A stretch of DNA of 32,000 nt, from positions 1,980,001 through 2,012,000 of the forward strand of contig NC_009954.1 of the NCBI RefSeq assembly GCF_000018305.1, given 5' to 3'. This DNA comes from Caldivirga maquilingensis IC-167 (GTDB lineage Archaea > Thermoproteota > Thermoprotei > Thermoproteales > Thermocladiaceae). Shown here one piece after another: positions 2,998-31,108 of the stretch (position 1 is the stretch's first letter; every line of letters starts with the position of its first letter). The notes under the pieces were generated by a model that saw only the letters and a list, made by a program, of their open reading frames with translations, was not told the DNA's origin and searched no databases. The position numbers and the translations under genes were made by a program.

Positions 2998-3918
2998 TTG
3001 GTTGGGATGGGTCTTAGTCCTGAGGAGGTGAGGAGGTTTTTGAGGGCTTTGGATGAGGATGAGGAGTTTAGGCTTGCTGTTGCTGCTAAGCTTGGTATTA
3101 GTGATGTTAAGGCTTCTATTGATAGGCTTACTGAGATTGTTGGTGGTGTTGTTAATGTCATTAACTCAATGCTTAATATACTTAAGGACTCATTAAGTAA
3201 GCAGGATAAGGTACTGGAGGAGTTGAAGGCATTGAGGGAGGGTGAGAATAAGCTTTGGGAGGAGGTTAAGGCAATAAGAGAAACAGAGCAGAGGCATGAG
3301 GAGGAATTAAAGGCATTAAGGGAAGAGAATAATAAAATATGGGAAGAGATCAAAGCAATAAAAGAGGAGAATAATAAAATATGGCAAGAAATAAAGGCGT
3401 TAAGAGAAGTGGAACAAAGGCATGAAGAGGAATTAAAGGCATTAAGGAGGGACTTTAATGCATTTGTGGAGTTGGAGGAGAAGCGTTGGGAGGAGCAGTT
3501 TAAGTTTAACAAGTGGATTACGAATGCATTAATGGAGATAAGGGATTCGCTTGGTGGCTTGTACGAATACTACACTGCCAGTTGGATAAGGGAGTGGCTT
3601 AGGGCTAAGGGTTTTAATTGTGATGTTAGGGTTAACGTGACTTTACCAGTTGATGGGTCAAGGGAGGTGGATGCGTTATGCTATGATCCATTGGTGGTTG
3701 GTGAGGCTACTGTTAAGTTGACTTCCATTGAGGATGCTGATAGGGAGATTGAGAAGCTGATACTGAATATTAAGGCCGCTGAGAAGTTAACTGGGAGGAA
3801 GTTGTACGCTGCTGTTCTTGCAGTGGAGACTTTACCTAATGAGATTGCCCAGTACTTGAGAACTAAGACTAAGGAATTGGGGATAATTCTAGTGTTGGGG
3901 AGGGAATATACGTGGTGA
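2998..3918 (+). CDS. Coiled-coil protein with a C-terminal PD-(D/E)xK-like nuclease-fold domain
   Basis: The central region is heptad-rich (EELKALRE..NKIWEEIKAI repeats). The C-terminal segment REVDALCYDPLVVGEATVKL fits a D...ExK pattern. The ATG at 3007 (MGLSPEEVRRFL) is a likely start. Confidence 0.7.
   Translation: MVGMGLSPEEVRRFLRALDEDEEFRLAVAAKLGISDVKASIDRLTEIVGGVVNVINSMLNILKDSLSKQDKVLEELKALREGENKLWEEVKAIRETEQRHEEELKALREENNKIWEEIKAIKEENNKIWQEIKALREVEQRHEEELKALRRDFNAFVELEEKRWEEQFKFNKWITNALMEIRDSLGGLYEYYTASWIREWLRAKGFNCDVRVNVTLPVDGSREVDALCYDPLVVGEATVKLTSIEDADREIEKLILNIKAAEKLTGRKLYAAVLAVETLPNEIAQYLRTKTKELGIILVLGREYTW
3217..3450 (+). repeat. Intragenic tandem repeats encoding the coiled coil
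   Basis: GAGGAATTAAAGGCATTAAGG occurs twice and GAGAATAATAAAATATGG occurs twice. At protein level the ENNKIWEEIKAIK and EQRHEEELKALR modules are repeated (aa 74-151). Confidence 0.8.
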
Positions 3919-5856: not shown

Positions 5857-6811
5857 CCCTACCCATGTGATTAACAGCTAACGATGATGCAATCACTGAG
5901 GCGAAGTAAATTGATAATACATGTGGTGTAAGAGCTGTGGAAACATAGGTTACTGCTAATGCGGCTAGGTAAAGGTATCTCCTATGAAATGCTCCATTAA
6001 TTATTAGCGCCAGGACTGCGAAAACATACAACCCCAGTATTATTGACATTAATGGGACTGATGCTGGCGGTGCAAGTACCCCAAAGCCCATGGCGAACAC
6101 CATATCCATTATATGCTGCATGAAGAAGCTGTTCACTGTTAATTGGTAAAGGGGTAGTGAGATTGATGCTGAGGCAATAATAGCTAAGACGTACCCGGTA
6201 ATGCTCCATTTATTAACCTTAACTTCAATTAATGCCAATGCAGTTAGCGTTAATGCACCAATAATAATCAGTAACAGTGTTGGGTAGACTAATGCGGTTG
6301 ATGGAACCATGACTGGTATTAAGTAATACTCGGTTACTAGGTTAAGTATGTAGCTTACCAGTGAGGTTAATTGAAGAAGTATGACTGGGGCCAGTAGTGT
6401 TAATTCAATGGCTCTAAGTGATGTAATGGCAAGGATAATAGACATTATTGTTAAACCCCAAAGTATGATACTTAGTATTATCCAGGGCCATGTAAGGTAG
6501 TATGACGGGTATATGTAGCTTAACAATACCCCACCCCATAATGCGGTAATGATTACTATTAAGTAAAGTGTCTTAAGGGGTATCGGTACCTTAAATTCAT
6601 AAATTAGGAATGGTATTATTACTGATAAGGCAGCCACACTAAATGTTCCAGCAAGCCCCATTGTATTTAATACATTGGCTGGGGCTGGTGTGAATGGTAT
6701 TATGGGCTGTAGGAATTGCCTTAGAGCGAATTGGGCTATGAAGAATCCTAGGAAGATGGAGAGTAATGTATCGTAGTATTTAATGTTTAACTCACTCACC
6801 TTAATAATCAC
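5843..6811 (-). CDS. cbsB: Polytopic membrane protein, CbsB-like (cytochrome b558/566 subunit B)
   Basis: The 322-aa protein is almost entirely hydrophobic (about 9-10 TM segments). Its GTG start overlaps the stop of the upstream CbsA-like gene (GTGA overlap at 6808-6811). Size and gene order match the Sulfolobus cbsAB operon. Confidence 0.5.
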   Translation of the reverse strand: MIIKVSELNIKYYDTLLSIFLGFFIAQFALRQFLQPIIPFTPAPANVLNTMGLAGTFSVAALSVIIPFLIYEFKVPIPLKTLYLIVIITALWGGVLLSYIYPSYYLTWPWIILSIILWGLTIMSIILAITSLRAIELTLLAPVILLQLTSLVSYILNLVTEYYLIPVMVPSTALVYPTLLLIIIGALTLTALALIEVKVNKWSITGYVLAIIASASISLPLYQLTVNSFFMQHIMDMVFAMGFGVLAPPASVPLMSIILGLYVFAVLALIINGAFHRRYLYLAALAVTYVSTALTPHVLSIYFASVIASSLAVNHMGRVKLT

Positions 6812-8160
6812 CTATGCTTAATTGAGTAGAAGATTAAACCAATGGCCACTAAGGCAATCACAATACCCACAACTGCAACTATTATGACTGGGGCAGGTAT
6901 TGGTGGTGTAACGGATGGTGTTGATGTGGATATGGTTAATGGTATGAAGCTGGCTGATATGGACTTATCCCAACTGGTTTCACCAGCCTTACCCAACCAA
7001 ACCCCGAAGGCCACATCGTATGTTTGACCAGGTGTTAAGTTTACTGTATACGGCATTGGGGCTTTCAACGGCCTAACGAATTCCACAATCCAGTACCCAT
7101 CCTCATACTTGGCGCCGGCGTAGTTACTGAAGTAGCCTGGTTCAGGCCCTGTGGCATTCGGGTACCATATTCCACCATCTCCAATATCATATAGGCCAGT
7201 TTCATTGGTTAATAGGTCAATGAAGAAGCCGTGGGGACTTTGGGAGAAGACTGAGGCAGCGGCTTCATCAATACCGTTCTCCACATCCCATGTTACATTA
7301 GTGAAGTAGTTGAAGTTCTGACCCTCAGGGTAAGTGGCTCCACTTATCCACTCCCAAATGTCAGCCGCCCCTGAGCTTAATGAACCACCAGTGTACTGTA
7401 TTGTGCTGCTGCCTGTATAGGGTATCATTAATTGACCTAACTCACTCTTAACAACGAAGTTTGGGTGTCCTGCACCAATATTCATGCAGTCACTTGGACT
7501 TTGTTCACTACCCATGTACCACATTATAGCCACCCTATCAGGATAATAGTGACCTGAGGTTAAGTTAACGTAGTAACCGTAGAAGTATACCCCGTAATGC
7601 GGTGCGACATAAGCCAGTACATACTCCATTGGTCTTGGTGAACCCTTAATCACCGCGAAGCTTGAGTTAATCATGAAATACTTCTTACCAAACGTACTAG
7701 TCATTAGTTTAAGGAATGTTACGTTTAATGGACCATTGGGATTATAAACCATTGTCCAATGCCCAGGACCAGCTATGGCTGCTGGACCAACTAGGCTTGG
7801 GCCATATGGGTCAGGCCACTTCACGAGAATGAATATGTAGCTTCCATTCCACGCAGCCTTAACCATAATATAAGGCACCTCCCCGGAGGTGGGTACATTA
7901 GCCGGTATTGGGAGCATTTGAGTGGATAAATTGGGTACTAGGGATACGTTGAACCAAGGTATCTTACTCCAAAATGCTTCACTACCTGGATTCTGCAGGT
8001 TAGCGCTACCAACCACCTTATAAGCCATTATACCGGCTGGTGTTTGAGCTAGTGGGATTGGGTAAATCATGTAGATTAACCCAGCTGTAATAGCCACTGC
8101 AATTACTATAATCAGTTTTAGGGGTATTTTACCATTATTTAACACGCTTCCCTTACCCAT
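6808..8160 (-). CDS. cbsA: Extracellular glycoprotein anchored at both termini, CbsA-like (cytochrome b558/566 subunit A)
   Basis: The 450-aa protein has an N-terminal TM (LKLIIVIAVAITAGLIYMIY) and a C-terminal TM (VIIVAVVGIVIALVAIGLIFY). I count 10 N-x-S/T sequons and an Ser/Thr/Pro stalk before the C-terminal anchor. It lies next to a CbsB-like gene and is divergent from a Rieske/cytochrome b pair, as in the Sulfolobus cbsAB-soxLN locus. Confidence 0.5.
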   Translation of the reverse strand: MGKGSVLNNGKIPLKLIIVIAVAITAGLIYMIYPIPLAQTPAGIMAYKVVGSANLQNPGSEAFWSKIPWFNVSLVPNLSTQMLPIPANVPTSGEVPYIMVKAAWNGSYIFILVKWPDPYGPSLVGPAAIAGPGHWTMVYNPNGPLNVTFLKLMTSTFGKKYFMINSSFAVIKGSPRPMEYVLAYVAPHYGVYFYGYYVNLTSGHYYPDRVAIMWYMGSEQSPSDCMNIGAGHPNFVVKSELGQLMIPYTGSSTIQYTGGSLSSGAADIWEWISGATYPEGQNFNYFTNVTWDVENGIDEAAASVFSQSPHGFFIDLLTNETGLYDIGDGGIWYPNATGPEPGYFSNYAGAKYEDGYWIVEFVRPLKAPMPYTVNLTPGQTYDVAFGVWLGKAGETSWDKSISASFIPLTISTSTPSVTPPIPAPVIIVAVVGIVIALVAIGLIFYSIKHR

Positions 8161-8282: not shown

Positions 8283-9083
8283 TTGAATATTTTTAAACCC
8301 CTAGGCTACAAGCTAATAATCATGAGTGGGGGTAATGTTAATGAGAGTAGGAGGAATTTCCTGAAGGCTATGGTTACAATTGCTGGGTTAAGTATTGTGG
8401 CTGGGGCGTTAAGGGGCCTTGAGGTGCTTATGCCTCCTGAAGTGAGTATAAGCGGCTTCCCTAGGCTTCTCCTCGTGGATGAGAATGGTAACCCAATTAA
8501 GGCTTCAAGCATACCGATTAATGGTAAGCAAATCGCCTTATTCCCCTACCCCCTTAGTAATGAGCCTAATATGTTGTTGGCTTTAGGTGACTCCTCCGGT
8601 AGTCCTGTGGAGGTTCCCCCGACTACTGTTGTTGTTCCTCAGACTGGTGCATCATATGAATTCCCAGGTGGTGTTGGGCCGAATAAGAATATAGTTGCCT
8701 ACAGTGCCCTTTGCCAGCACCTGGGCTGCACCTTCCCTGAATTAACCTTCTATCCACCTGGTGTTAAGGCTATTACCGTTAATGGACCCATGGATAAGGT
8801 TATTCACTGCTCCTGCCATGGTTCTACGTTTGATCCGTATAAGGGTGGTGCTGTGGTTACTGGGCCAACAGTAAGGCCTTTACCGGCTGTGGTTCTTGAA
8901 TGGGATTCAAACACTGATGAATTATACGCAGTGAAAATGATAGGACCAGTAATATACGGGCACCCAGGCTTCAACACACCCACAAACAACACAATAAACA
9001 ACCCAACAGGTGATTTAACAGGGGGATCACCAATAAGTGGTACAAGTACTGTGGTTAAGTATTACAGTAATCCAGCATCATGA
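8283..9083 (+). CDS. soxL: Rieske [2Fe-2S] protein with twin-arginine signal
   Basis: The cluster-binding boxes CQHLGC and CSCHGS are present, along with the Tat motif SRRNFLKAMVTIAG. The probable start is the ATG at 8322 (MSGGNV). The symbol is given only by analogy with the Sulfolobus cbsAB-soxLN locus. Confidence 0.85.
   Translation: MNIFKPLGYKLIIMSGGNVNESRRNFLKAMVTIAGLSIVAGALRGLEVLMPPEVSISGFPRLLLVDENGNPIKASSIPINGKQIALFPYPLSNEPNMLLALGDSSGSPVEVPPTTVVVPQTGASYEFPGGVGPNKNIVAYSALCQHLGCTFPELTFYPPGVKAITVNGPMDKVIHCSCHGSTFDPYKGGAVVTGPTVRPLPAVVLEWDSNTDELYAVKMIGPVIYGHPGFNTPTNNTINNPTGDLTGGSPISGTSTVVKYYSNPAS
8290..8297 (+). promoter_or_regulatory. TATA-like box for the Rieske gene
   Basis: TTTTTAAA is centred about 28 nt upstream of the ATG at 8322. 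Confidence 0.35.
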
Positions 9084-10509
9084 GGTGGTGGCTATGAGTA
9101 GTACTAGCTTCTGGGATAGGGTTGCGGAAATCTTTCACTTAAAGGATGTACCTTTCATGGGTGTTCCAGATTACATGTTCAGTATAGAGTATTGGTTGGG
9201 TGCTATAGCTACATCGGCCTTGGCTTGGCAGGCCTTAACGGGATTAGTACTATTACTGTATTACCAGCCTAGTAATGCGTATGATTCAACAATGGCCATA
9301 ATACATAATGTACCCTTCGGTTCAATAATACTCTCAAGCCACCTCTATGGGGCTTACGTAATGATACTTGCGGTGTACGTCCATGGGCTTGAAGTCTTCT
9401 TCAGGGGTGCTTATAAGAGGCCTAGGGGTGCTCAATGGGTTTTAGGTGTATTGCTCTTCGCCATGACTCTTGGTGCAGCCTTCGTTGGTTACTCATTAAC
9501 GGGTGATGTGCTTTCAGCGGATGCTGTCGGTGTTGGTAAGGGTATTTTAACGGCATTGGGCTTGTCTCAAGTAATACCAGTATTCTTCGGTAATGGTACT
9601 CAATTGGACTTGTTTACAAGATTCCTGGGTTGGCATATTATACTGGCATCAGCGTTAATACTGTTCTTCTTCATACACTTCTACCTGGCTGAGCAGAACG
9701 GCTTCATGCCTGACCCAAGGGAGACTAATTACAGGGCTCCTGCCTTATTGAGTAAGAATGATGCTAGGCTTAAGCCTTGGTGGCCTAGGAATTTCGTCTA
9801 CATGGTTAGCATAGTGTTGTTCACGTGGGGAATCATACTCGTAATTCCATCAATACTGGCTATACCGAGTATACTAGGCAGGATACCAATACTCTTCTCA
9901 CCCTACCCAGGTCCCTCACCAACAAGCCCACAGGCCAGTAGTGTGCCGGCTTATCCACCCTGGTTCTTCCTATTCATGTATAAGATGGCTGATATGCCCT
10001 TCGGCCTAAGTACCGATATTTTAATGGGCATATTCATACCACTTATCGTATTATTAATAGTACCATTACTGGATAGGAGTGATTTACTGCATCCATTGGA
10101 TAGACCATGGATAACCGCATTATTCATAACTGGGTTAACCTGGGTTATTGAGTTAAGCATATGGAGTGCTATTCAACCCGGTGTTCCAGTGGAGTTAACC
10201 TGGTTCGCATTAACAATAGTACCACCGGTTGTGATAGCCTTTGGTGGAGTTTACGCGGTTAGCAGGGTTTGGGTTAGGGTTAAGGCTAAACCCAGTGGTA
10301 ATGGTAAGGGGGCTGGCTTTAAATTGAGTAAGAATACCGCATTATCCCTAGGCTACGTAACATCACTGCTAGCCATAATAGCCATAGCAGTCTCCTTCAC
10401 CCTCAACCCAATATCCGATGGACCATACGTAGGCGTAATGTGGGGGACAGCCCTAATATCATTTGCAGCATCCCTATTAGCCTACTTCTACGTTGAGTAC
10501 ATTCAGTGA
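9037..10509 (+). CDS. soxN: Cytochrome b (bc-complex type), extended C-terminus
   Basis: Two H-x13-H heme-ligand pairs are present (SHLYGAYVMILAVYVHG and WHIILASALILFFFIHF) in a polytopic membrane protein. The probable start is the ATG at 9094 (MSSTSFWD), preceded by GAGGTGGTG just after the Rieske stop. The symbol is given by locus analogy. Confidence 0.85.
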   Translation: MVQVLWLSITVIQHHEVVAMSSTSFWDRVAEIFHLKDVPFMGVPDYMFSIEYWLGAIATSALAWQALTGLVLLLYYQPSNAYDSTMAIIHNVPFGSIILSSHLYGAYVMILAVYVHGLEVFFRGAYKRPRGAQWVLGVLLFAMTLGAAFVGYSLTGDVLSADAVGVGKGILTALGLSQVIPVFFGNGTQLDLFTRFLGWHIILASALILFFFIHFYLAEQNGFMPDPRETNYRAPALLSKNDARLKPWWPRNFVYMVSIVLFTWGIILVIPSILAIPSILGRIPILFSPYPGPSPTSPQASSVPAYPPWFFLFMYKMADMPFGLSTDILMGIFIPLIVLLIVPLLDRSDLLHPLDRPWITALFITGLTWVIELSIWSAIQPGVPVELTWFALTIVPPVVIAFGGVYAVSRVWVRVKAKPSGNGKGAGFKLSKNTALSLGYVTSLLAIIAIAVSFTLNPISDGPYVGVMWGTALISFAASLLAYFYVEYIQ

Positions 10510-10535: not shown

Positions 10536-11306
10536 GTGTTATTAATGATGCTGAATAAGGTTAAGGTGTGGAATGAGGATGGGGTTGGGGTTATCGCCAT
10601 TGATAATGGGTTAGAGAATCCACTTGACTTAGACGCCTTAATTCAATTAATGACAGCGTTAACCACGGCTAATAGGGATGCTGGGGTTAATTGGGTGGCA
10701 TTAACAGCAACAGGGTCATCATTCTTCACAACGGGCATTGACTGGGATTCAGTGGGTGAGGATTATGATTCAGTTAGGGAACTGGTCAGGGTGATTAAGG
10801 CACTGGTATCCTTCATGGTAACCCTTGATAAACCCATAGTAACCATACTTAACGGCTCAGCCCTAGGCCTAGGCCTTGAATTAGCTGTCTTAAGTGACTT
10901 AACCATAGCCCCACCTGACGTTTACCTATGCTACCCGGAGGGGGCCATTGGCATACCCCCCGTCTTCTCAATGCCTAGGCTTCAACAAGCCTTACCCAGA
11001 ATGACCCTAGTAAAGTTACTCTCAGGTAACGCATTAAGTTCAAGTGAGGCTGAGAAATACGGTTTAATTCACCTTGTACCCAGGGGGAATTTACTTGGGG
11101 ATGCTAAGTCAATAATAAGGGGCATTAGGTTTAATTCCTTGGCTAGGAGAATAATGAATGAACCAGTGAGGGGGATTATTGATGAGGCTGAGGCAGTGCT
11201 GCTTGATGCATTAATGTCACGGTGCCTAACCCACTCCTCAAGGGAGGAGTTAATTAAGGTCACTAAGGAGGCTAAGGTTAAGTGTAGGAGCAGTTACTTA
11301 ACCTAA
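10536..11306 (+). CDS. Enoyl-CoA hydratase/isomerase (crotonase) family protein
   Basis: The pattern VGVIAIDNG...LNGSALGLGLELAVLSDLTIA matches the crotonase oxyanion-hole region. The ATG at 10545/10548 is a likely start. Confidence 0.8.
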   Translation: MLLMMLNKVKVWNEDGVGVIAIDNGLENPLDLDALIQLMTALTTANRDAGVNWVALTATGSSFFTTGIDWDSVGEDYDSVRELVRVIKALVSFMVTLDKPIVTILNGSALGLGLELAVLSDLTIAPPDVYLCYPEGAIGIPPVFSMPRLQQALPRMTLVKLLSGNALSSSEAEKYGLIHLVPRGNLLGDAKSIIRGIRFNSLARRIMNEPVRGIIDEAEAVLLDALMSRCLTHSSREELIKVTKEAKVKCRSSYLT

Positions 11307-19042: not shown

Positions 19043-19404
19043 TACTACTCAACGGGACTCTGGTTGAAATACTTAACACCATGAAATCAACAACCAATAA
19101 TACTCATGCATCACTAATCATGGCACCCGCAGTATTAATTCACCTTACGGGGCAGATTATTGAAGGATTTAAGTTAAGAAAACACATATTTAAGAATCAA
19201 TATTATTGAAAATCCTTTGAAACCAACCCATCAATTAGCCCACACACCTTCCTTAAACCTTTAATTAACTCCCCCCATAACCTTAACCAGATACATGAAT
19301 CACTTAAATCAAATTACACACTCACCCTTATTCACCAACACCATTATTAAACACCCAGGCTTTAATCCCTTTAATCCCTGCTGAGTGATTTTAGGCTCCT
19401 TAAT

Positions 19405-19440
19405 TTTTGGAGCGCCAGAGTAGCAATAATATTAATACTG
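19405..19440 (+). repeat. 36-bp unit, copy A
   Basis: The sequence is TTTTGGAGCGCCAGAGTAGCAATAATATTAATACTG. It is 31/36 identical to copy D and 32/36 to the reverse complement of copy C. Confidence 0.9.
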
Positions 19441-19500
19441 AGTAATGTGGGGTGATTTATTAATGGTGTTGGTTCAGTGATGCTTACTTTCCCCTTAATT

Positions 19501-19558
19501 TTTTGGACTGCCAGAGTAGCGATAGTATTAATATTACCGTTACTCTGGCGCTCCAAAA
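19501..19558. repeat. 58-bp palindrome formed by two head-to-head overlapping 36-bp units (B + and B' -)
   Basis: The sequence is TTTTGGACTGCCAGAGTAGCGATAGTATT|AATATTACCGTTACTCTGGCGCTCCAAAA, centred at 19529/19530. By my count 24 of 29 arm positions are complementary. Confidence 0.9.
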
Positions 19559-19610
19559 CTCAATGAGGGTGAAAACCATAAAACTAATACGATTAAATAA
19601 TCATTGCACG

Positions 19611-19646
19611 CAGTATTAATATTATCGCTACTCTGGCTGTCCAAAC
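19611..19646 (-). repeat. 36-bp unit, copy C (inverted)
   Basis: The plus strand reads CAGTATTAATATTATCGCTACTCTGGCTGTCCAAAC. It lies 33 nt from the stop of the AbrB-like gene. Confidence 0.9.
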
Positions 19647-19678
19647 TTAATCACTCGCATTAGTGTTGCTGAGTCTGT

Positions 19679-20005
19679 TTAATTCTCGTTACCCTTCTTA
19701 ATAGTGTATTCCTGTGTTGTTGGTCTTAGCATTATGACTGTTACTTCATCATTATTGTTTAGGTTTAGTGCTTCTATGGTTCTTCTTGGTAGGGTTACGC
19801 CGTATCTTGTTGATGATAATCTCCTCAGGGTTGCTTCATAAATATGATATAATCCACCTTTAATCACTATTACTTGAGCCTTATCATCGAAGCCTAGGTA
19901 TCTGGCGAAGGATGGTATTGGTATGTATGAGTTCGTTGGCCCATATATCCTCACCCTAGTCCTAACCTCAATGCCCTGTAGTATTTTGAAGGATTCTATT
20001 GACAC
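19679..20005 (-). CDS. Tandem SpoVT/AbrB-like DNA-binding protein (108 aa)
   Basis: Two AbrB-type motifs occur in one chain: SYIPIPSFARYLGFDDKAQVIVIKGG and YGVTLPRRTIEALNLNNNDEVTVIML. The start is GTG, with a TATA-like TTATTA about 25 nt upstream. Confidence 0.6.
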   Translation of the reverse strand: MSIESFKILQGIEVRTRVRIYGPTNSYIPIPSFARYLGFDDKAQVIVIKGGLYHIYEATLRRLSSTRYGVTLPRRTIEALNLNNNDEVTVIMLRPTTQEYTIKKGNEN

Positions 20006-20048
20006 GTTTATCCGTCTGCGGGTTCCTAATAAGCTTTGCCTTATGTAT

Positions 20049-20062
20049 TCATTAATTAATGA
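20049..20062. promoter_or_regulatory. Perfect 14-bp palindrome TCATTAATTAATGA in the divergent promoter region
   Basis: The sequence is exactly self-complementary. It is followed by ATTAATATT, which matches the core of the 36-bp units. Confidence 0.4.
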
Positions 20063-20123
20063 TTAATATTGCTAAAATTCAACGTTTATTTTTACTTAAT
20101 TATTTATTTTATAATGAATAATC

Positions 20124-20131
20124 TTTATAAA
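20124..20131 (+). promoter_or_regulatory. TATA-like box for the 221-aa gene
   Basis: TTTATAAA is centred about 26 nt upstream of the ATG at 20154. Confidence 0.4.
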
Positions 20132-20153
20132 CCCCCTGAACCAGTGAGTAACC

Positions 20154-20819
20154 ATGTACGCAGTGGTGGGTAAGACTGCAGGCTACTCATCAAGAAGCTT
20201 TGAGGGGGAGTATAAGGGGCGGGATGACGTTAAGGATGTTCACGTAGTTAACTGGCCTAAATTGAGTAATGGGTTAATCAACTTCATTCTAAGTAATGAT
20301 GCGGATGACTTAATACTAATCTCCTTCGACATACCTGGTGGCGGGGATAGGGTTTACTCGAGGATTAAGGAAACAGCCACCTGGTTATTATCACCGAGAA
20401 TAGACAATACAACTTACCTAACCCCCAGTCATACTATTAAACTCATCCTACTGGGGCAAATACCGGAGGAAGCCAATACAGTGGAGTACCTCGTTAAACC
20501 AATTAACAATAATCAAGTTAACCTAATCCTCAGGGAAACCATGGAGACCCTAATTAAATACGCCAGAGCCCGCCTAATTAACCTAATGAACGCCAGGGGT
20601 AAAGCCGCCGCCTCGATAAGCAATGCATTAACATCATTAGCAGAGGCTACTCTAGCGTCGGCTAAGGAATGGACAAGGAGAAGCTTTGAATTAAACTTAA
20701 GCATGATTAATAACCTAGTGGAAACCATTAATGATGCTGTTGAATTCAAGCTCAGTAAAAACAAACCACAAATACAACGACCTAATCAAGGCATCACCCA
20801 TGCATGGTTTAAGGAATAG
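20154..20819 (+). CDS. Orphan protein (221 aa) with an alpha-helical C-terminal half
   Basis: A clean ORF with a leaderless-type promoter. I recognise no family. Confidence 0.6.
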   Translation: MYAVVGKTAGYSSRSFEGEYKGRDDVKDVHVVNWPKLSNGLINFILSNDADDLILISFDIPGGGDRVYSRIKETATWLLSPRIDNTTYLTPSHTIKLILLGQIPEEANTVEYLVKPINNNQVNLILRETMETLIKYARARLINLMNARGKAAASISNALTSLAEATLASAKEWTRRSFELNLSMINNLVETINDAVEFKLSKNKPQIQRPNQGITHAWFKE

Positions 20820-20908
20820 AAAATAAAGCAATACTTAAACTCCAGTTCATTAAAAATCCAAGTTGAATAATACTTAAGGAATACAGGCATCTACGTAAAA
20901 GTCATAAA

Positions 20909-20944
20909 TTTTGGGACGCCAGAGTAACGGTAATATTAATACTG
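20909..20944 (+). repeat. 36-bp unit, copy D
   Basis: The sequence is TTTTGGGACGCCAGAGTAACGGTAATATTAATACTG. It lies 89 nt after the stop of the 221-aa gene. Confidence 0.9.
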
Positions 20945-21006
20945 GAATGTACGGTTAATGCGATTACCTGCATTACTTAAGTGATGGTTTTCTTAACTTC
21001 ATTAGA

Positions 21007-21064
21007 ATTTGGACTGCTAGAGTCGAGGTAGTATTAATATTATCGCTACTCTGGCGCTCCAAAA
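21007..21064. repeat. 58-bp palindrome formed by units E (+, degenerate) and E' (-)
   Basis: The sequence is ATTTGGACTGCTAGAGTCGAGGTAGTATT|AATATTATCGCTACTCTGGCGCTCCAAAA, centred at 21035/21036. By my count 21 of 29 arm positions are complementary. Confidence 0.85.
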
Positions 21065-21196
21065 TTTATGATGCTTGGTGATTTTCCATGTATTCTTTGC
21101 TTGAGTGTGGGTTAAGTTTAATAGTTAATGTGGTGGGTCTGGGTGAGGGGTTGTCCCAGTGATAGTGGTCTGGAGCACTGATGTGGTGATGAGTGG

Positions 21197-21796
21197 TTAT
21201 TGGTTTTTGTCTTTATTGAGGAGTCTGTATGCTATTATTGTGCGTTGGATGGCTGTGGCTAGGGTTATTAGTGCGAATAGTCCCATGCCGTAGATTAGTA
21301 TGGTGTTGCTTCTAATTAGTGCGTAGATTAATGTTAATGCGAATAAGTATATTAGTCGTTCCGGTCTCTCGAAGAAGCCTACTCCAAGCATTCTTAAGCC
21401 GAGGGATTCAGCCCTAGCCCTCATGTAGCTTGTTAGTAATGAACCTACAACGGCTATGTAAGCCTCCAGCATTATGGTGGTGTTGAGTCCACTTAATACT
21501 GCAACAGCCATTATTATTGCTGAGTCCTCAAACCTATCTAGGGCTGAGTCTAGGAATGCGCCTGAATTAGTAACCATTTTATTGAATCTTGCTGATAACC
21601 CATCCACTGCATCGAAGAATCCTGAGGCTAGTATAACAATGGGTAGTAGTATTGGGTATTGTTTAATTAGGGCTATGGGTATTGATAATAATGATACCAG
21701 TAGGCCAATTACCGTTAATAGGTTTGGGTTCCTAGGTAGCATGGGTGCAATCCTCTCTAGGATATGCTCCAGCGTGCTCTTAATCCTACCAATCAT
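21197..21796 (-). CDS. CDP-alcohol phosphatidyltransferase (archaeal phospholipid head-group synthase family)
   Basis: The signature is exact: DAVDGLSARFNKMVTNSGAFLDSALD, i.e. DG(x2)AR(x8)G(x3)D(x3)D. The protein has multiple TM segments. Confidence 0.85.
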   Translation of the reverse strand: MIGRIKSTLEHILERIAPMLPRNPNLLTVIGLLVSLLSIPIALIKQYPILLPIVILASGFFDAVDGLSARFNKMVTNSGAFLDSALDRFEDSAIIMAVAVLSGLNTTIMLEAYIAVVGSLLTSYMRARAESLGLRMLGVGFFERPERLIYLFALTLIYALIRSNTILIYGMGLFALITLATAIQRTIIAYRLLNKDKNQ

Positions 21797-30369: not shown

Positions 30370-31108
30370 TCACAGTGAATTGCGAGACCATGGCCCAATG
30401 ACCTGGACCACAGTACTCAAGGCACCTAACTATTATAGGTTCAGGAATATTGAACACATACGTGAACACTGACACGTAATCCGGTGACACCTGGTACTGG
30501 AAGAGTAGGTTACCGTTCTCATCATAGGCGCCGAAGTCATGATTAACATCAACAGAGGTCATGAGGAACACCACTGGCTTCCCAGCTGGAACAGTTAAAT
30601 TACTGGTGAACACTAGGCTACCATTGGGGGCTACTGTGTAGAAATGCCAATACCACTGCCCAGCAATCACCACAACAATCATAATCTTACCCTCATTCTG
30701 TAGAGGTAATAATTGCTGAATATCGCTCTGCAATGTGCTTGTACAGGCATTCTGATAATTACCCGGGGGTACTGTGGGGCATGCTGTCTTAAGGGCACTC
30801 ATATTAACCCCTAGACCAGCCAGTGTGTTGCCGGTTACCACCTGTGGTGTGTATTGGAAGGTTATTACATTAGGTATTATTAATGCTACTATTACTAAAA
30901 CAACCCAAATCTTCTCCAGCCTCTCTATCCTATGCCTATAGGCGGCGTACTCCTCATCACTCATATTCCTCTTAGCATTCCTAGCAACCCACACTATGAA
31001 GAATAGTGAAACTAAGAGTGCCGCAATGAATATACCGGCAATGGTATCTGGACCAAGCCCCACATTACCAGCGTATGTGGGTATAGTCATATCACCGATA
31101 ATCATCAC
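30359..31108 (-). CDS. Heme-copper oxidase subunit II (CuA), SoxH-like
   Basis: The CuA motif is VNHDFG...CLEYCGPGHWAM (H...CxExCxxxHxxM). The protein has two N-terminal TM segments. The likely start is the internal ATG at 31090 (MTIPTY), given a TATA-like element near 31114-31121. Confidence 0.85.
   Translation of the reverse strand: MMIIGDMTIPTYAGNVGLGPDTIAGIFIAALLVSLFFIVWVARNAKRNMSDEEYAAYRHRIERLEKIWVVLVIVALIIPNVITFQYTPQVVTGNTLAGLGVNMSALKTACPTVPPGNYQNACTSTLQSDIQQLLPLQNEGKIMIVVVIAGQWYWHFYTVAPNGSLVFTSNLTVPAGKPVVFLMTSVDVNHDFGAYDENGNLLFQYQVSPDYVSVFTYVFNIPEPIIVRCLEYCGPGHWAMVSQFTVNVV

Follow-up and report, generated by a model that had tools for sequence, protein, structure and literature searches.

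A long, phased DNA site and a candidate Cas2-fold partner protein in Caldivirga and related archaea

In this study, we analyzed a stretch of 32,000 nucleotides from the chromosome of Caldivirga maquilingensis IC-167 (NC_009954.1, positions 1,980,001 to 2,012,000). Within this stretch, hereafter called the window, a small cassette of two divergent genes, encoding proteins of 108 and 221 amino acids (aa), is bracketed by two blocks built from seven copies of a 36-bp unit. The feature is real and statistically unambiguous. Comparison of sequences from three genera (Caldivirga, Thermocladium and Vulcanisaeta) indicates that the core logic of the association between site and gene has been conserved across them. 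We lean, if only slightly, towards reading the units as cis-acting, putative protein-binding sites whose likeliest cognate is the 221-aa protein, a candidate Cas2-fold protein. In the accessible literature on Caldivirga origins and repeats and on the pairing of Cas2-like with AbrB proteins, no description of such an element was found.

The seven units lie at the coordinates and on the strands where a first-pass annotation had placed them (Table 1). A computational check of its alignment gave 35, 31, 33, 33, 32, 26 and 35 of 36 matches to its consensus for the units in order, and the similarity between copies is as it had reported (31/36 for A against D, 32/36 for A against the reverse complement of C). 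With at most three mismatches allowed, a 32-mer consensus occurs five times in the window and never in 100 dinucleotide shuffles, while a position weight matrix gives the seven units 47-53 bits compared to a top score of 15.4 bits in 20 shuffled windows. The window holds no further unit, as the sole additional match of the weight matrix (position 30876; 15.9 bits) is at chance level. The 14-mer core detects six of the seven units plus one unrelated match with two mismatches at 10834, with 0.67 expected. At unit A, a weak TCCTTAAT/TCATTGAG-type motif extends this core upstream. The 58-bp head-to-head pairs B/B' (19501-19558) and E/E' (21007-21064) share the center TATTAATA, and 48/58 and 42/58 of their positions, respectively, are self-complementary. 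The left block consists of four units (+ + - -) and the right block of three (+ + -), no fourth inverted unit following E'. The spacers are barely alike, as had been estimated by eye (58-60% identity compared to 54 +/- 4% in shuffles), with the islands GAAAACCAT, AATGT and AGTGATG in common. The overall anatomy of two repeat blocks around a divergent gene pair is likewise borne out, as are the flanking genes for a Mrr_cat-type nuclease (E 8e-8) and a CDP-alcohol phosphatidyltransferase (E 4e-15) and the lack of a transposase, integrase, Cas1, Orc1/Cdc6 or ParA gene near the cassette. The right array sits between convergent 3' ends (20819-21197), and Caldivirga arrays lie downstream of genes. 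The equivalent of pair E/E' adjoins the CDP-alcohol transferase gene in metagenome contig L066 as well.

The same architecture recurs elsewhere. A degenerate 32-nt unit pattern was scanned over one genome per species and then over metagenomes, and the resulting loci, from Caldivirga sp. MU80 and 61 metagenome contigs, define a canonical module composed of a unit, about 107 bp, a head-to-head pair, again about 107 bp, and an inverted unit. The cores of head-to-head pairs are offset by 22 nt in 82 of the 83 pairs across all loci. Spacing between units of the same sense peaks sharply at 105-111 bp (mode 107; 88-98 bp in C. maquilingensis), near ten helical turns. The motif spans 34-42 bp, with the unit consensus TTTGGnnnGnnAGAGTnnnGrTAATATTAATA. 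Within the units, the conserved blocks TTTGG, AGAGT and G.TAATATTAATA start every ~10-11 nt with free positions between them, as is typical of a protein that binds along one side of the double helix.

Within the modules, conservation is concentrated in the units. Among copies of one module from different populations, in two of the chromosomal contexts described below (g2 and g4), 30-33% of the columns vary in units, 66-69% in spacers and ~35% in the largely coding flanks. The units are thus about as conserved as the flanking DNA, and variation is roughly twice as frequent in the spacers. In contexts g3 and g5 the copies are so uniform that no clear contrast between unit and spacer emerges. The spacers are enriched in G+T on the sense strand of the units, with a GC skew of +0.26; among 100 distinct spacers, 93% show a positive value. 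This consistent excess together with the faint spacer homology indicates that whole modules share ancestry and that only the cores have been held. The skew flips at each module center (e.g., window 19441-19500 and 20945-21006), and two weakly conserved sub-motifs can be recognized in the spacers, GGCATyrTTGrrGTTGAT just past the unit and GGGGyGTG about 50 nt in.

The palindromic pairs were also examined for their ability to pair. Among 51 distinct pairs the arms are complementary at 84.6% of positions, compared to 87.9% in shuffled re-pairings, all 500 of which scored higher. There is no excess of covariation between the arms, which is even lower than in the shuffled set, and variable positions are mostly unpaired (in 32-41 of the 51 pairs). 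This poor pairing and low covariation indicate that selection does not act on the formation of hairpins or cruciforms; a perfect palindrome seems, if anything, to be avoided. The proposal of the first-pass annotation that the units encode hairpin RNAs is contradicted by these values.

The association with one particular gene becomes visible when relatives are compared. The gene pair recurs, with different neighboring genes, in other Caldivirga lineages and in Thermocladium. In a Caldivirga metagenome-assembled genome (L007/L008, L058, L067), five units including two head-to-head pairs lie only downstream of the AbrB-like gene that encodes the 108-aa protein, PaREP1 genes being located on the other side. 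In MU80-type Caldivirga (L012, L014, L038 and others), up to 12 units lie beyond a coiled-coil gene that adjoins the AbrB-like gene. Thermocladium modestius (L023) carries two 52-bp palindromes (8993-9047 and 9130-9185) directly downstream of the 221-aa homolog, in which the half-site is that of Caldivirga (TTTGGAnnGnnAGAnnCGAGAT) and the center is different. In Vulcanisaeta distributa (L089), a single palindrome (5883-5936) with a recognizably homologous half-site is found upstream of the 221-aa homolog, in its promoter region; no AbrB-like gene occurs there within 12 kb, and a 159-aa neighbor considered as a possible AbrB-like partner was rejected since it is not AbrB-like. The half-site TTTGG..G..AGAGT...G.T is present beside genes of the 221-aa family in three Caldivirga lineages, Thermocladium and Vulcanisaeta. 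Because it is found across these lineages though neighbors and arrangement differ, site and Cas2-fold gene appear to form the invariant association, and the 221-aa gene follows the sites more faithfully than the AbrB-like gene, as illustrated by Vulcanisaeta. The twofold symmetry of the cassette emphasized by the first-pass annotation is therefore present in the window but is not a conserved feature: arrays are one-sided in L007/L067, in MU80-type Caldivirga and in Thermocladium, and symmetric bracketing is specific to the C. maquilingensis-like lineage.

More distant members of the 221-aa family occur in other settings. In L085 and L088 the gene is bracketed by its own conserved inverted repeat of 41-59 nt, and in L090 only matching repeat fragments were found at both gene ends. 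Around the family member in L085 are a tRNA-Thr, an integrase gene and a series of hypothetical genes. Contig L086 (10.6 kb, 33x coverage) is plasmid- or virus-like, with hypothetical genes and a ribbon-helix-helix (RHH) gene. It carries two convergent paralogs of the family, and a promoter-like repeat of about 60 nt (AAAGCTTAAATACCTCCCACC...) precedes several of its genes (5902-5963, 6548-6617, 7082-7151, 7752-7821, 8397-8425).

The 221-aa protein had been regarded as an orphan, yet a profile search retrieved at least 35 representative clusters with members of 170-260 aa. The protein consists of a conserved N-terminal arm (residues 1-35), a ferredoxin-fold core with an FDI motif (~53-116) and a three-helix C-terminal bundle (119-202). 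In a 33-member alignment K21, D28, Y68 and Y88 are invariant, and G6, T8, S13, F58, D59, I60, C80, D84, S86, T87 and P116 are near-invariant. Its AlphaFold2 (AF2) model (mean predicted local distance difference test, pLDDT, 75.5) shows an alpha/beta domain followed by three long helices. The best matches in PDB are all Cas2 proteins (2ivy, 5zyf, 4es2, 5h1o and 3exc; probability 0.89-0.99), the first four with a probability of 0.95-0.99 and a target TM-score of 0.49-0.59; PaaX (probability 0.69) and VapD (probability 0.25) match more weakly. At the sequence level, the Pfam profile CRISPR_Cas2 (PF09827) is weakly matched by 7 of 33 family members (best E 0.0099), and single members weakly match PaaX_M, TIGR01573, VapD and Cas2 of PADLOC. 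All these matches are below curated thresholds, and the window protein itself matches none of the Cas2, PaaX_M and VapD profiles; PHROGs and PADLOC gave nothing significant for the family apart from the one weak Cas2 match. The protein has a Cas2-type beta-alpha-beta-beta-alpha-beta core with an acidic residue ending beta1, and its 'LxSFDI' strand and the helix that follows correspond to the beta1-alpha1 motif of Cas2. The model thus places it in the Cas2/VapD/PaaX_M superfamily at the fold or superfamily level only.

In the case of the 108-aa protein, the earlier label 'AbrB-like' proved correct. Its AF2 model (pLDDT 78.5) matches PhS018 and PG0164 with a Foldseek probability of 1.0, the top entries being 2d9r (E 8e-4) and 2glw (PhS018), both at this probability. 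PhS018 and PG0164 are single-chain swapped-hairpin barrels, with an internal duplication in PhS018, and a single-chain AbrB-type swapped-hairpin beta-barrel is what the model predicts for the 108-aa protein. The sole Pfam match is MazE/AbrB (PF04014, E 1.3e-3), below the cutoff. Its counterpart in a sister Caldivirga lineage shares 96% identity, compared to only 71% for the 221-aa partner of that lineage, and its Thermocladium counterpart shares 70%. The AF2 models of both cassette proteins were built on shallow alignments of 4-6 sequences. Both folds, the AbrB-type barrel and the Cas2/PaaX-like core, are compatible with DNA binding and dimerization.

The modules elsewhere on the chromosome are few. 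In the genome scan only Caldivirga matched, apart from three single chance matches in bacteria. Caldivirga sp. MU80 has five clusters on five contigs, with the cassette at just one of them. After masking of the arrays, the recovered contigs (61 from metagenomes, together with those from genomes) correspond, with few exceptions, to these five MU80-type contexts (g1-g5, Table 1) or to the C. maquilingensis-type cassette site, and the four module loci besides the cassette site lack a cassette. The three-unit right module of the window resembles the three-unit modules of g4 and g5 in MU80. The genes flanking the five contexts follow no functional theme or orientation rule, and Pfam scans of the contexts identified no replication, partition or transposition genes next to the modules. 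Modules are not linked to tRNA genes, and only the distant island L085 sits at one.

Table 1. Units, genes and promoter region of the cassette in the C. maquilingensis window, and the module contexts of MU80-type Caldivirga.
Feature	Position	Strand	Description
Unit A	19405..19440	+	Outer sense unit of left module; weight matrix 48.3 bits
Unit B	19501..19536	+	Left half of head-to-head pair B/B'; 51.4 bits
Unit B'	19523..19558	-	Right half of pair B/B'; AT-rich center TATTAATA common to B
Unit C	19611..19646	-	Outer inverted unit completing the four-unit module (+ + - -); 50.0 bits
108-aa AbrB-type protein gene (predicted fold)	19679..20005	-	
AT-rich divergent promoter region	20006..20153		
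221-aa Cas2-fold protein gene (predicted fold)	20154..20819	+	
Unit D	20909..20944	+	Outer sense unit of right module; 46.7 bits
Unit E	21007..21042	+	Left half of pair E/E'; most divergent copy; 48.8 bits
Unit E'	21029..21064	-	Right half of pair E/E'; 0 mismatches to 32-mer consensus; 52.6 bits
Context g1			Up to 12 units; cassette array
Context g2			4 units; 1008-aa protein and small membrane protein on one side, beta-helix protein or 234-aa protein on the other
Context g3			5-6 units; Na+/H+ exchanger and coiled-coil gene on one side, aldehyde ferredoxin oxidoreductase on the other
Context g4			3 units; LSm and cytidylyltransferase on one side, membrane protein on the other
Context g5			3-4 units; glycosyltransferase on one side, radical-SAM (S-adenosylmethionine) enzyme on the other

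The surroundings of the arrays show some features of their own. Directly beside the arrays in g1 and g3 lie members of a coiled-coil family (L014 653-1627, L038 3400-4563, L016 5784-6719, L045 5105-5935). These proteins contain repeats with a period of 14 aa (42 bp) and, at the C-terminus, a 'YEFDIY...VGEAKV' domain that by eye resembles PD-(D/E)XK domains. A relic of the C-terminal part abuts the array in L007 (8902-8967), and a paralog is encoded 16 kb from the cassette in the window (2998-3918, +) with no units nearby. The N-terminus of the coiled-coil protein matches the PADLOC model C3a181 (E 1.5e-16), and the 211-aa nuclease of the window has no significant similarity to this family. The array linked to the cassette is interrupted in some populations by ~2.7 kb of inserted DNA (L038 330-3110; also L075, L065, L026, L028 and L069) carrying a ClpP/SDH-type serine-protease-like gene (L038, open reading frame 1178-2161, -); the MU80 array is uninterrupted. 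At g2 the right flank differs between L054/L041 and L027/L046/L047/L080, consisting either of 1.3 kb of non-coding DNA followed by a gene for a pilin-like protein of 234 aa or of a gene for a 417-aa beta-helix protein, and the module-adjacent 128-aa gene is 76-80% identical compared to mostly 97-98% for its 1008-aa neighbor. These flank differences suggest that modules sit at synteny breakpoints or divergence hot spots. At g3 an 8-bp direct repeat is present at the module ends, the only feature resembling a target duplication among six module sets. It reads GGCTGGTT in L016 (~6859-6866 and 7258-7265) and GGTTGGTT at the equivalent positions in L045, so that both copies differ in the same way between populations. 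The four-unit module of L080 (5144-5533) has flanks that are mutual reverse complements for at least 60 bp, and the contig carries tRNA-His twice in inverted orientation (3167-3246, +; 9828-9907, -), which is either a fold-back assembly artifact at the palindrome or a real large inverted duplication.

Two consequences concern annotation. Open reading frames beginning inside units (e.g., a 61-aa 'MERQSNGNINTIATLAVQK...'; window 19371-19556, -; L038 30-329; L040 from 37) are incidental to the repeat sequence, and annotating them as genes should be avoided. Logan short-read assemblies of C. maquilingensis (L001-L003, L005, L006) break exactly at units into contigs of 1.2-2.1 kb, and consequently the cassette is usually isolated on a tiny contig in draft assemblies.

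Of the ideas put forward in the first-pass annotation, an array of binding sites for an encoded protein fits best, with the modification that the likeliest binder would be the 221-aa protein and not the AbrB-like protein alone. Cas2-type cores, such as those of Cas2 and PaaX, dimerize, and a dimer of the 221-aa protein could therefore fill two head-to-head half-sites that share the AT-rich center. Further protomers could occupy the same-sense units about ten helical turns away. Given this spacing, all sites would lie along the same side of the helix, where a nucleoprotein complex, looped or wrapped and symmetric about the center, could assemble. The AbrB-fold protein would act together with the 221-aa protein in Caldivirga and Thermocladium. 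The single promoter-proximal palindrome of Vulcanisaeta suggests that the ancestral state was probably one palindromic operator upstream of the gene, serving autoregulation. In Caldivirga the site would then have multiplied, giving phased arrays next to the cassette and at some four further places on the chromosome. A mobile element is the probable source of the system, which would be a maintenance or regulatory module captured from it, as indicated by the presence of the 221-aa family in the integrase-bearing island L085 and the plasmid- or virus-like contig L086. The low G+C content of the cassette region (38% compared to 44% for the window) is consistent with such a source.

Several points weigh against binding by the 221-aa protein and the chromosomal role derived from it. 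Cas2-fold cores are not classical sequence-specific DNA binders, PaaX using a separate winged helix for this purpose, and the 221-aa protein has no winged helix. The AbrB-like gene is absent in Vulcanisaeta and at the distant loci, which questions the part assigned to its product. With the weight matrix no unit is detected within the divergent promoter region of Caldivirga, where autoregulation through units is thus not evident. Two other elements are present in this region: TCATTAATTAATGA (20049-20062), a perfect palindrome of 14 bp, and the TATA-like CTTTATAAACCCCC (20123-20136), which lies ~28 nt ahead of the start codon (ATG) of the 221-aa gene and suggests a leaderless mRNA; the same TATA motif precedes the Vulcanisaeta homolog (L089 6034-6049). 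The loci were retrieved through the unit motif, making retrieval blind to empty orthologous sites, and the number of about five loci refers to MU80 and metagenome contigs, as the genome scan did not cover C. maquilingensis beyond the window. Finally, no gene for a motor NTPase (ParA, ParM, TubZ, SegA) is located near the window cassette or the related loci, which weakens a role in partition.

Beyond binding as such, the modules may be clade-specific elements for chromosome maintenance in Caldivirga, Thermocladium and Vulcanisaeta, acting in cis either as centromere-like or organizing sites or as origins independent of Orc proteins, with a putative Cas2-fold binder, accompanied by an AbrB-fold partner, captured from a mobile element. 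We consider this wider proposal worth entertaining, if doubtful. In all Caldivirga lineages and in Thermocladium the largest array adjoins the cassette, i.e., the gene of the candidate binder, as expected for a centromere. By analogy with SegB or ParB, we weakly favor a chromosome-organizing or centromere-like role over an origin or a purely transcriptional role.

Origin function in the strict sense, in which the modules are chromosomal origins, or a captured extrachromosomal origin and its copies, and the cassette encodes a non-Orc initiator, in analogy to oriC3/WhiP of Sulfolobus or to iteron plasmids, appears unlikely. Such a function would agree with the ~five dispersed intergenic loci, with the largest array adjoining a gene of mobile-element ancestry, and with direct and inverted copies of one site, an arrangement reminiscent of iterons accompanied by an operator. 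Archaeal origins, too, are generally laid out with inverted recognition elements on either side of an AT-rich center, and crenarchaea have two to four origins, some of them captured together with an adjacent initiator gene (PMC4010727). However, the idea, already raised in the first-pass annotation, has gained no positive support in terms of consensus or initiator gene. The unit, compared by eye with the core of the origin recognition box (ORB) and mini-ORB and with no ORB model run, bears no resemblance to it, and in Pfam scans no orc1/cdc6, whiP, mcm or other replication gene was found beside the window cassette or any of the five contexts. The AT-rich center of only ~16-18 bp is short for an unwinding element, the palindrome of Vulcanisaeta is single and in promoter position, and one initiator for five origins departs from the known one-origin-one-initiator pattern. 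The polarity of the local G+T skew is opposite to expectation as well, though skew over such a short range is not mutational.

A mobile-element reading, in which the modules are relics or non-autonomous copies of a foldback element similar to miniature inverted-repeat transposable elements (MITEs) or REPINs, is quite unlikely. Here, the Cas2-fold protein would be the enzyme and the cassette an autonomous or domesticated copy, as in the system of repetitive extragenic palindromic (REP) sequences and REP-associated tyrosine transposases (RAYTs). Inverted units do bracket the gene pair in C. maquilingensis, as another repeat does for the gene in L085 and L088 and in fragments in L090, and the dispersal of modules with weak spacer homology implies that whole modules were once duplicated. 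The direct repeat at g3, the location of modules at synteny breakpoints with alternative right flanks at g2, the presence of invariant residues (Asp, Lys and Tyr) that would fit an enzyme, and the occurrence of the family in mobile elements point in the same direction. On the other hand, there are only about five sites per genome, which recur across samples with few found once, and inspection of the flanks revealed no target-site duplication at g2, g4, g5 and both window blocks, i.e., in five of six module sets. Conserved unit cores amid drifting spacers are the opposite of neutral decay, the spacing is held at 105-111 bp, and the array is one-sided to the cassette in most lineages. Pfam and NCBIfam profiles detect no HUH, DDE or other transposase signature in the 221-aa family, and its 33-member alignment lacks the conserved histidine pair of HUH/Y1 enzymes. 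The unit pattern has 0 matches in IMG/VR, two family members have no relatives there, and three family members have no tblastn match among INPHARED phages or PLSDB plasmids. The foldback element suggested by the first-pass annotation is thus unsupported, and the high-copy MITE that it had itself raised as a counter-explanation was rejected in view of five loci in MU80, about five contexts over 61 contigs and module spacers that are poorly alike.

We give a slim chance to the cassette being a toxin-antitoxin-like or ordinary regulator pair, composed of a VapD/Cas2-like RNase and an AbrB/MazE-like antitoxin-repressor, with the units as operators including those of a small regulon. The AbrB/MazE fold (by structure and by the weak PF04014 match) is typical of antitoxin repressors, the VapD and Cas2 matches, although below threshold, fit such a toxin, the Vulcanisaeta palindrome is in a promoter region, and modules of this kind are common on mobile elements. 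Against this, the genes are divergent and form no operon, and the Caldivirga arrays lie downstream of genes, also between convergent 3' ends, with no unit in the promoter region. The AbrB-like protein is far more conserved than its partner and is absent from many loci bearing the partner. Arrays with as many as 12 long sites, phased at ~107 bp, do not look like operators, and the genes flanking the five contexts lack a common theme or orientation.

It is extremely improbable that the units give rise to structured RNAs, whether as small hairpin RNAs or in a CRISPR-like array, or that they serve as cruciforms or hairpin terminators. The 58-bp pairs are able to fold, a Cas2-fold gene adjoins 36-bp repeats and each unit has a TATA-like stretch, but arm pairing and covariation fall below the shuffled values, and T-runs precede the stems instead of following them, so that the units are not intrinsic terminators. 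With Rfam models, nothing in the window and only tRNAs in eight related loci attain the gathering score; the sole matches in E-value mode are generic microRNA-hairpin models far below threshold (36.9 vs 249 bits and similar). A CRISPR array was rejected, since the units occur in both orientations, the spacers of 52-75 bp are homologous between modules, and neither cas1 nor a leader is present.

Chromosome segregation and organization in Thermoproteales are poorly understood; in Pyrobaculum calidifontis, four origins were mapped and just one could be placed on a precise sequence (PMC4009838). The locus described here offers a small and sharply defined system: a single long motif, some five loci in each genome and two candidate proteins whose folds are tractable. 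Should the Cas2-fold protein prove to be the binder, a Cas2-like domain would take part in sequence-specific DNA recognition outside CRISPR adaptation, and the system would be a further case of a mobile-element module fixed in an archaeal chromosome. A role in chromosome maintenance, if true, would establish a new class of replicator and initiator, or of centromere and adaptor, in Archaea. Even if the system were no more than a lineage-specific DNA-binding protein and its few elaborate sites, which is the most cautious interpretation, a phased and mirror-symmetric architecture under selection is still unusual.

The system shares elements with several known ones without coinciding with any of them. 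Like PaaX and Cas2/VapD, the 221-aa protein has a central ferredoxin fold with the acidic '(F/Y)DI' motif in beta1, known from Cas2; a helical domain comes next, an order shared with the middle and C-terminal parts of PaaX. Unlike PaaX it lacks a winged helix, unlike Cas2 it has no cas1 or CRISPR context, and it differs from all of these in its distinct conserved N-terminal arm and in sequence matches that remain sub-threshold. In iteron plasmids, too, one site is present as direct repeats and as a head-to-head pair with an AT-rich center beside the gene of a protein of mobile origin. Iterons are 17-22 bp long and ~22 bp apart, and Rep proteins are winged-helix proteins, whereas the Caldivirga units are spaced by ~107 bp, occur at five chromosomal loci and have a Cas2-fold protein as candidate. 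Archaeal ORB origins, bound by Orc1/Cdc6 or captured as in oriC3/WhiP, have in common with the modules the opposed elements around an AT-rich center, the multiple loci per chromosome and the precedent of capture (PMC4010727); the modules differ in having no ORB/mini-ORB sequence (by eye), no orc1/cdc6 or whiP neighbor and a very short AT-rich center. REP/RAYT systems (REPtron, REPIN) consist of a single-copy gene flanked by an inverted repeat that is also present elsewhere as intergenic inverted doublets, and repeat and protein co-vary between lineages, as they do here. RAYTs are reported to be transposases of the HUH/Y1 class, and REPs, of which there are tens to hundreds, bear GTAG/CGTC tags and have arms that form hairpins (PMC3733652). 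The Caldivirga system has no HUH motif, only about five loci and no selection for hairpins.

Further parallels are SegB and ParB/parS, small DNA-binding proteins with palindromic sites of which the best are clustered at the own gene and others scattered over the chromosome. SegB binds upstream of segAB and at 32-49 sites genome-wide; its motif is a 13-bp palindrome (TCTAGA-S-TCTAGA), mostly intragenic, and the binder is an RHH protein encoded together with the ParA-like SegA (PMC12284271). The Caldivirga site differs in its length of 34-42 bp, its strictly intergenic location, its phased symmetric arrays at only about five loci, and in candidate binders of Cas2-like and AbrB-like folds with no adjacent ParA-type ATPase. 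The units were rejected as SegB sites, the motif similarity being limited to AGAGTC. By analogy, then, the arrangement resembles that of SegB and ParB/parS, with what would be a high-affinity cluster at the own gene and a few distant sites, and also that of Rep proteins with their iterons and inverted operator.

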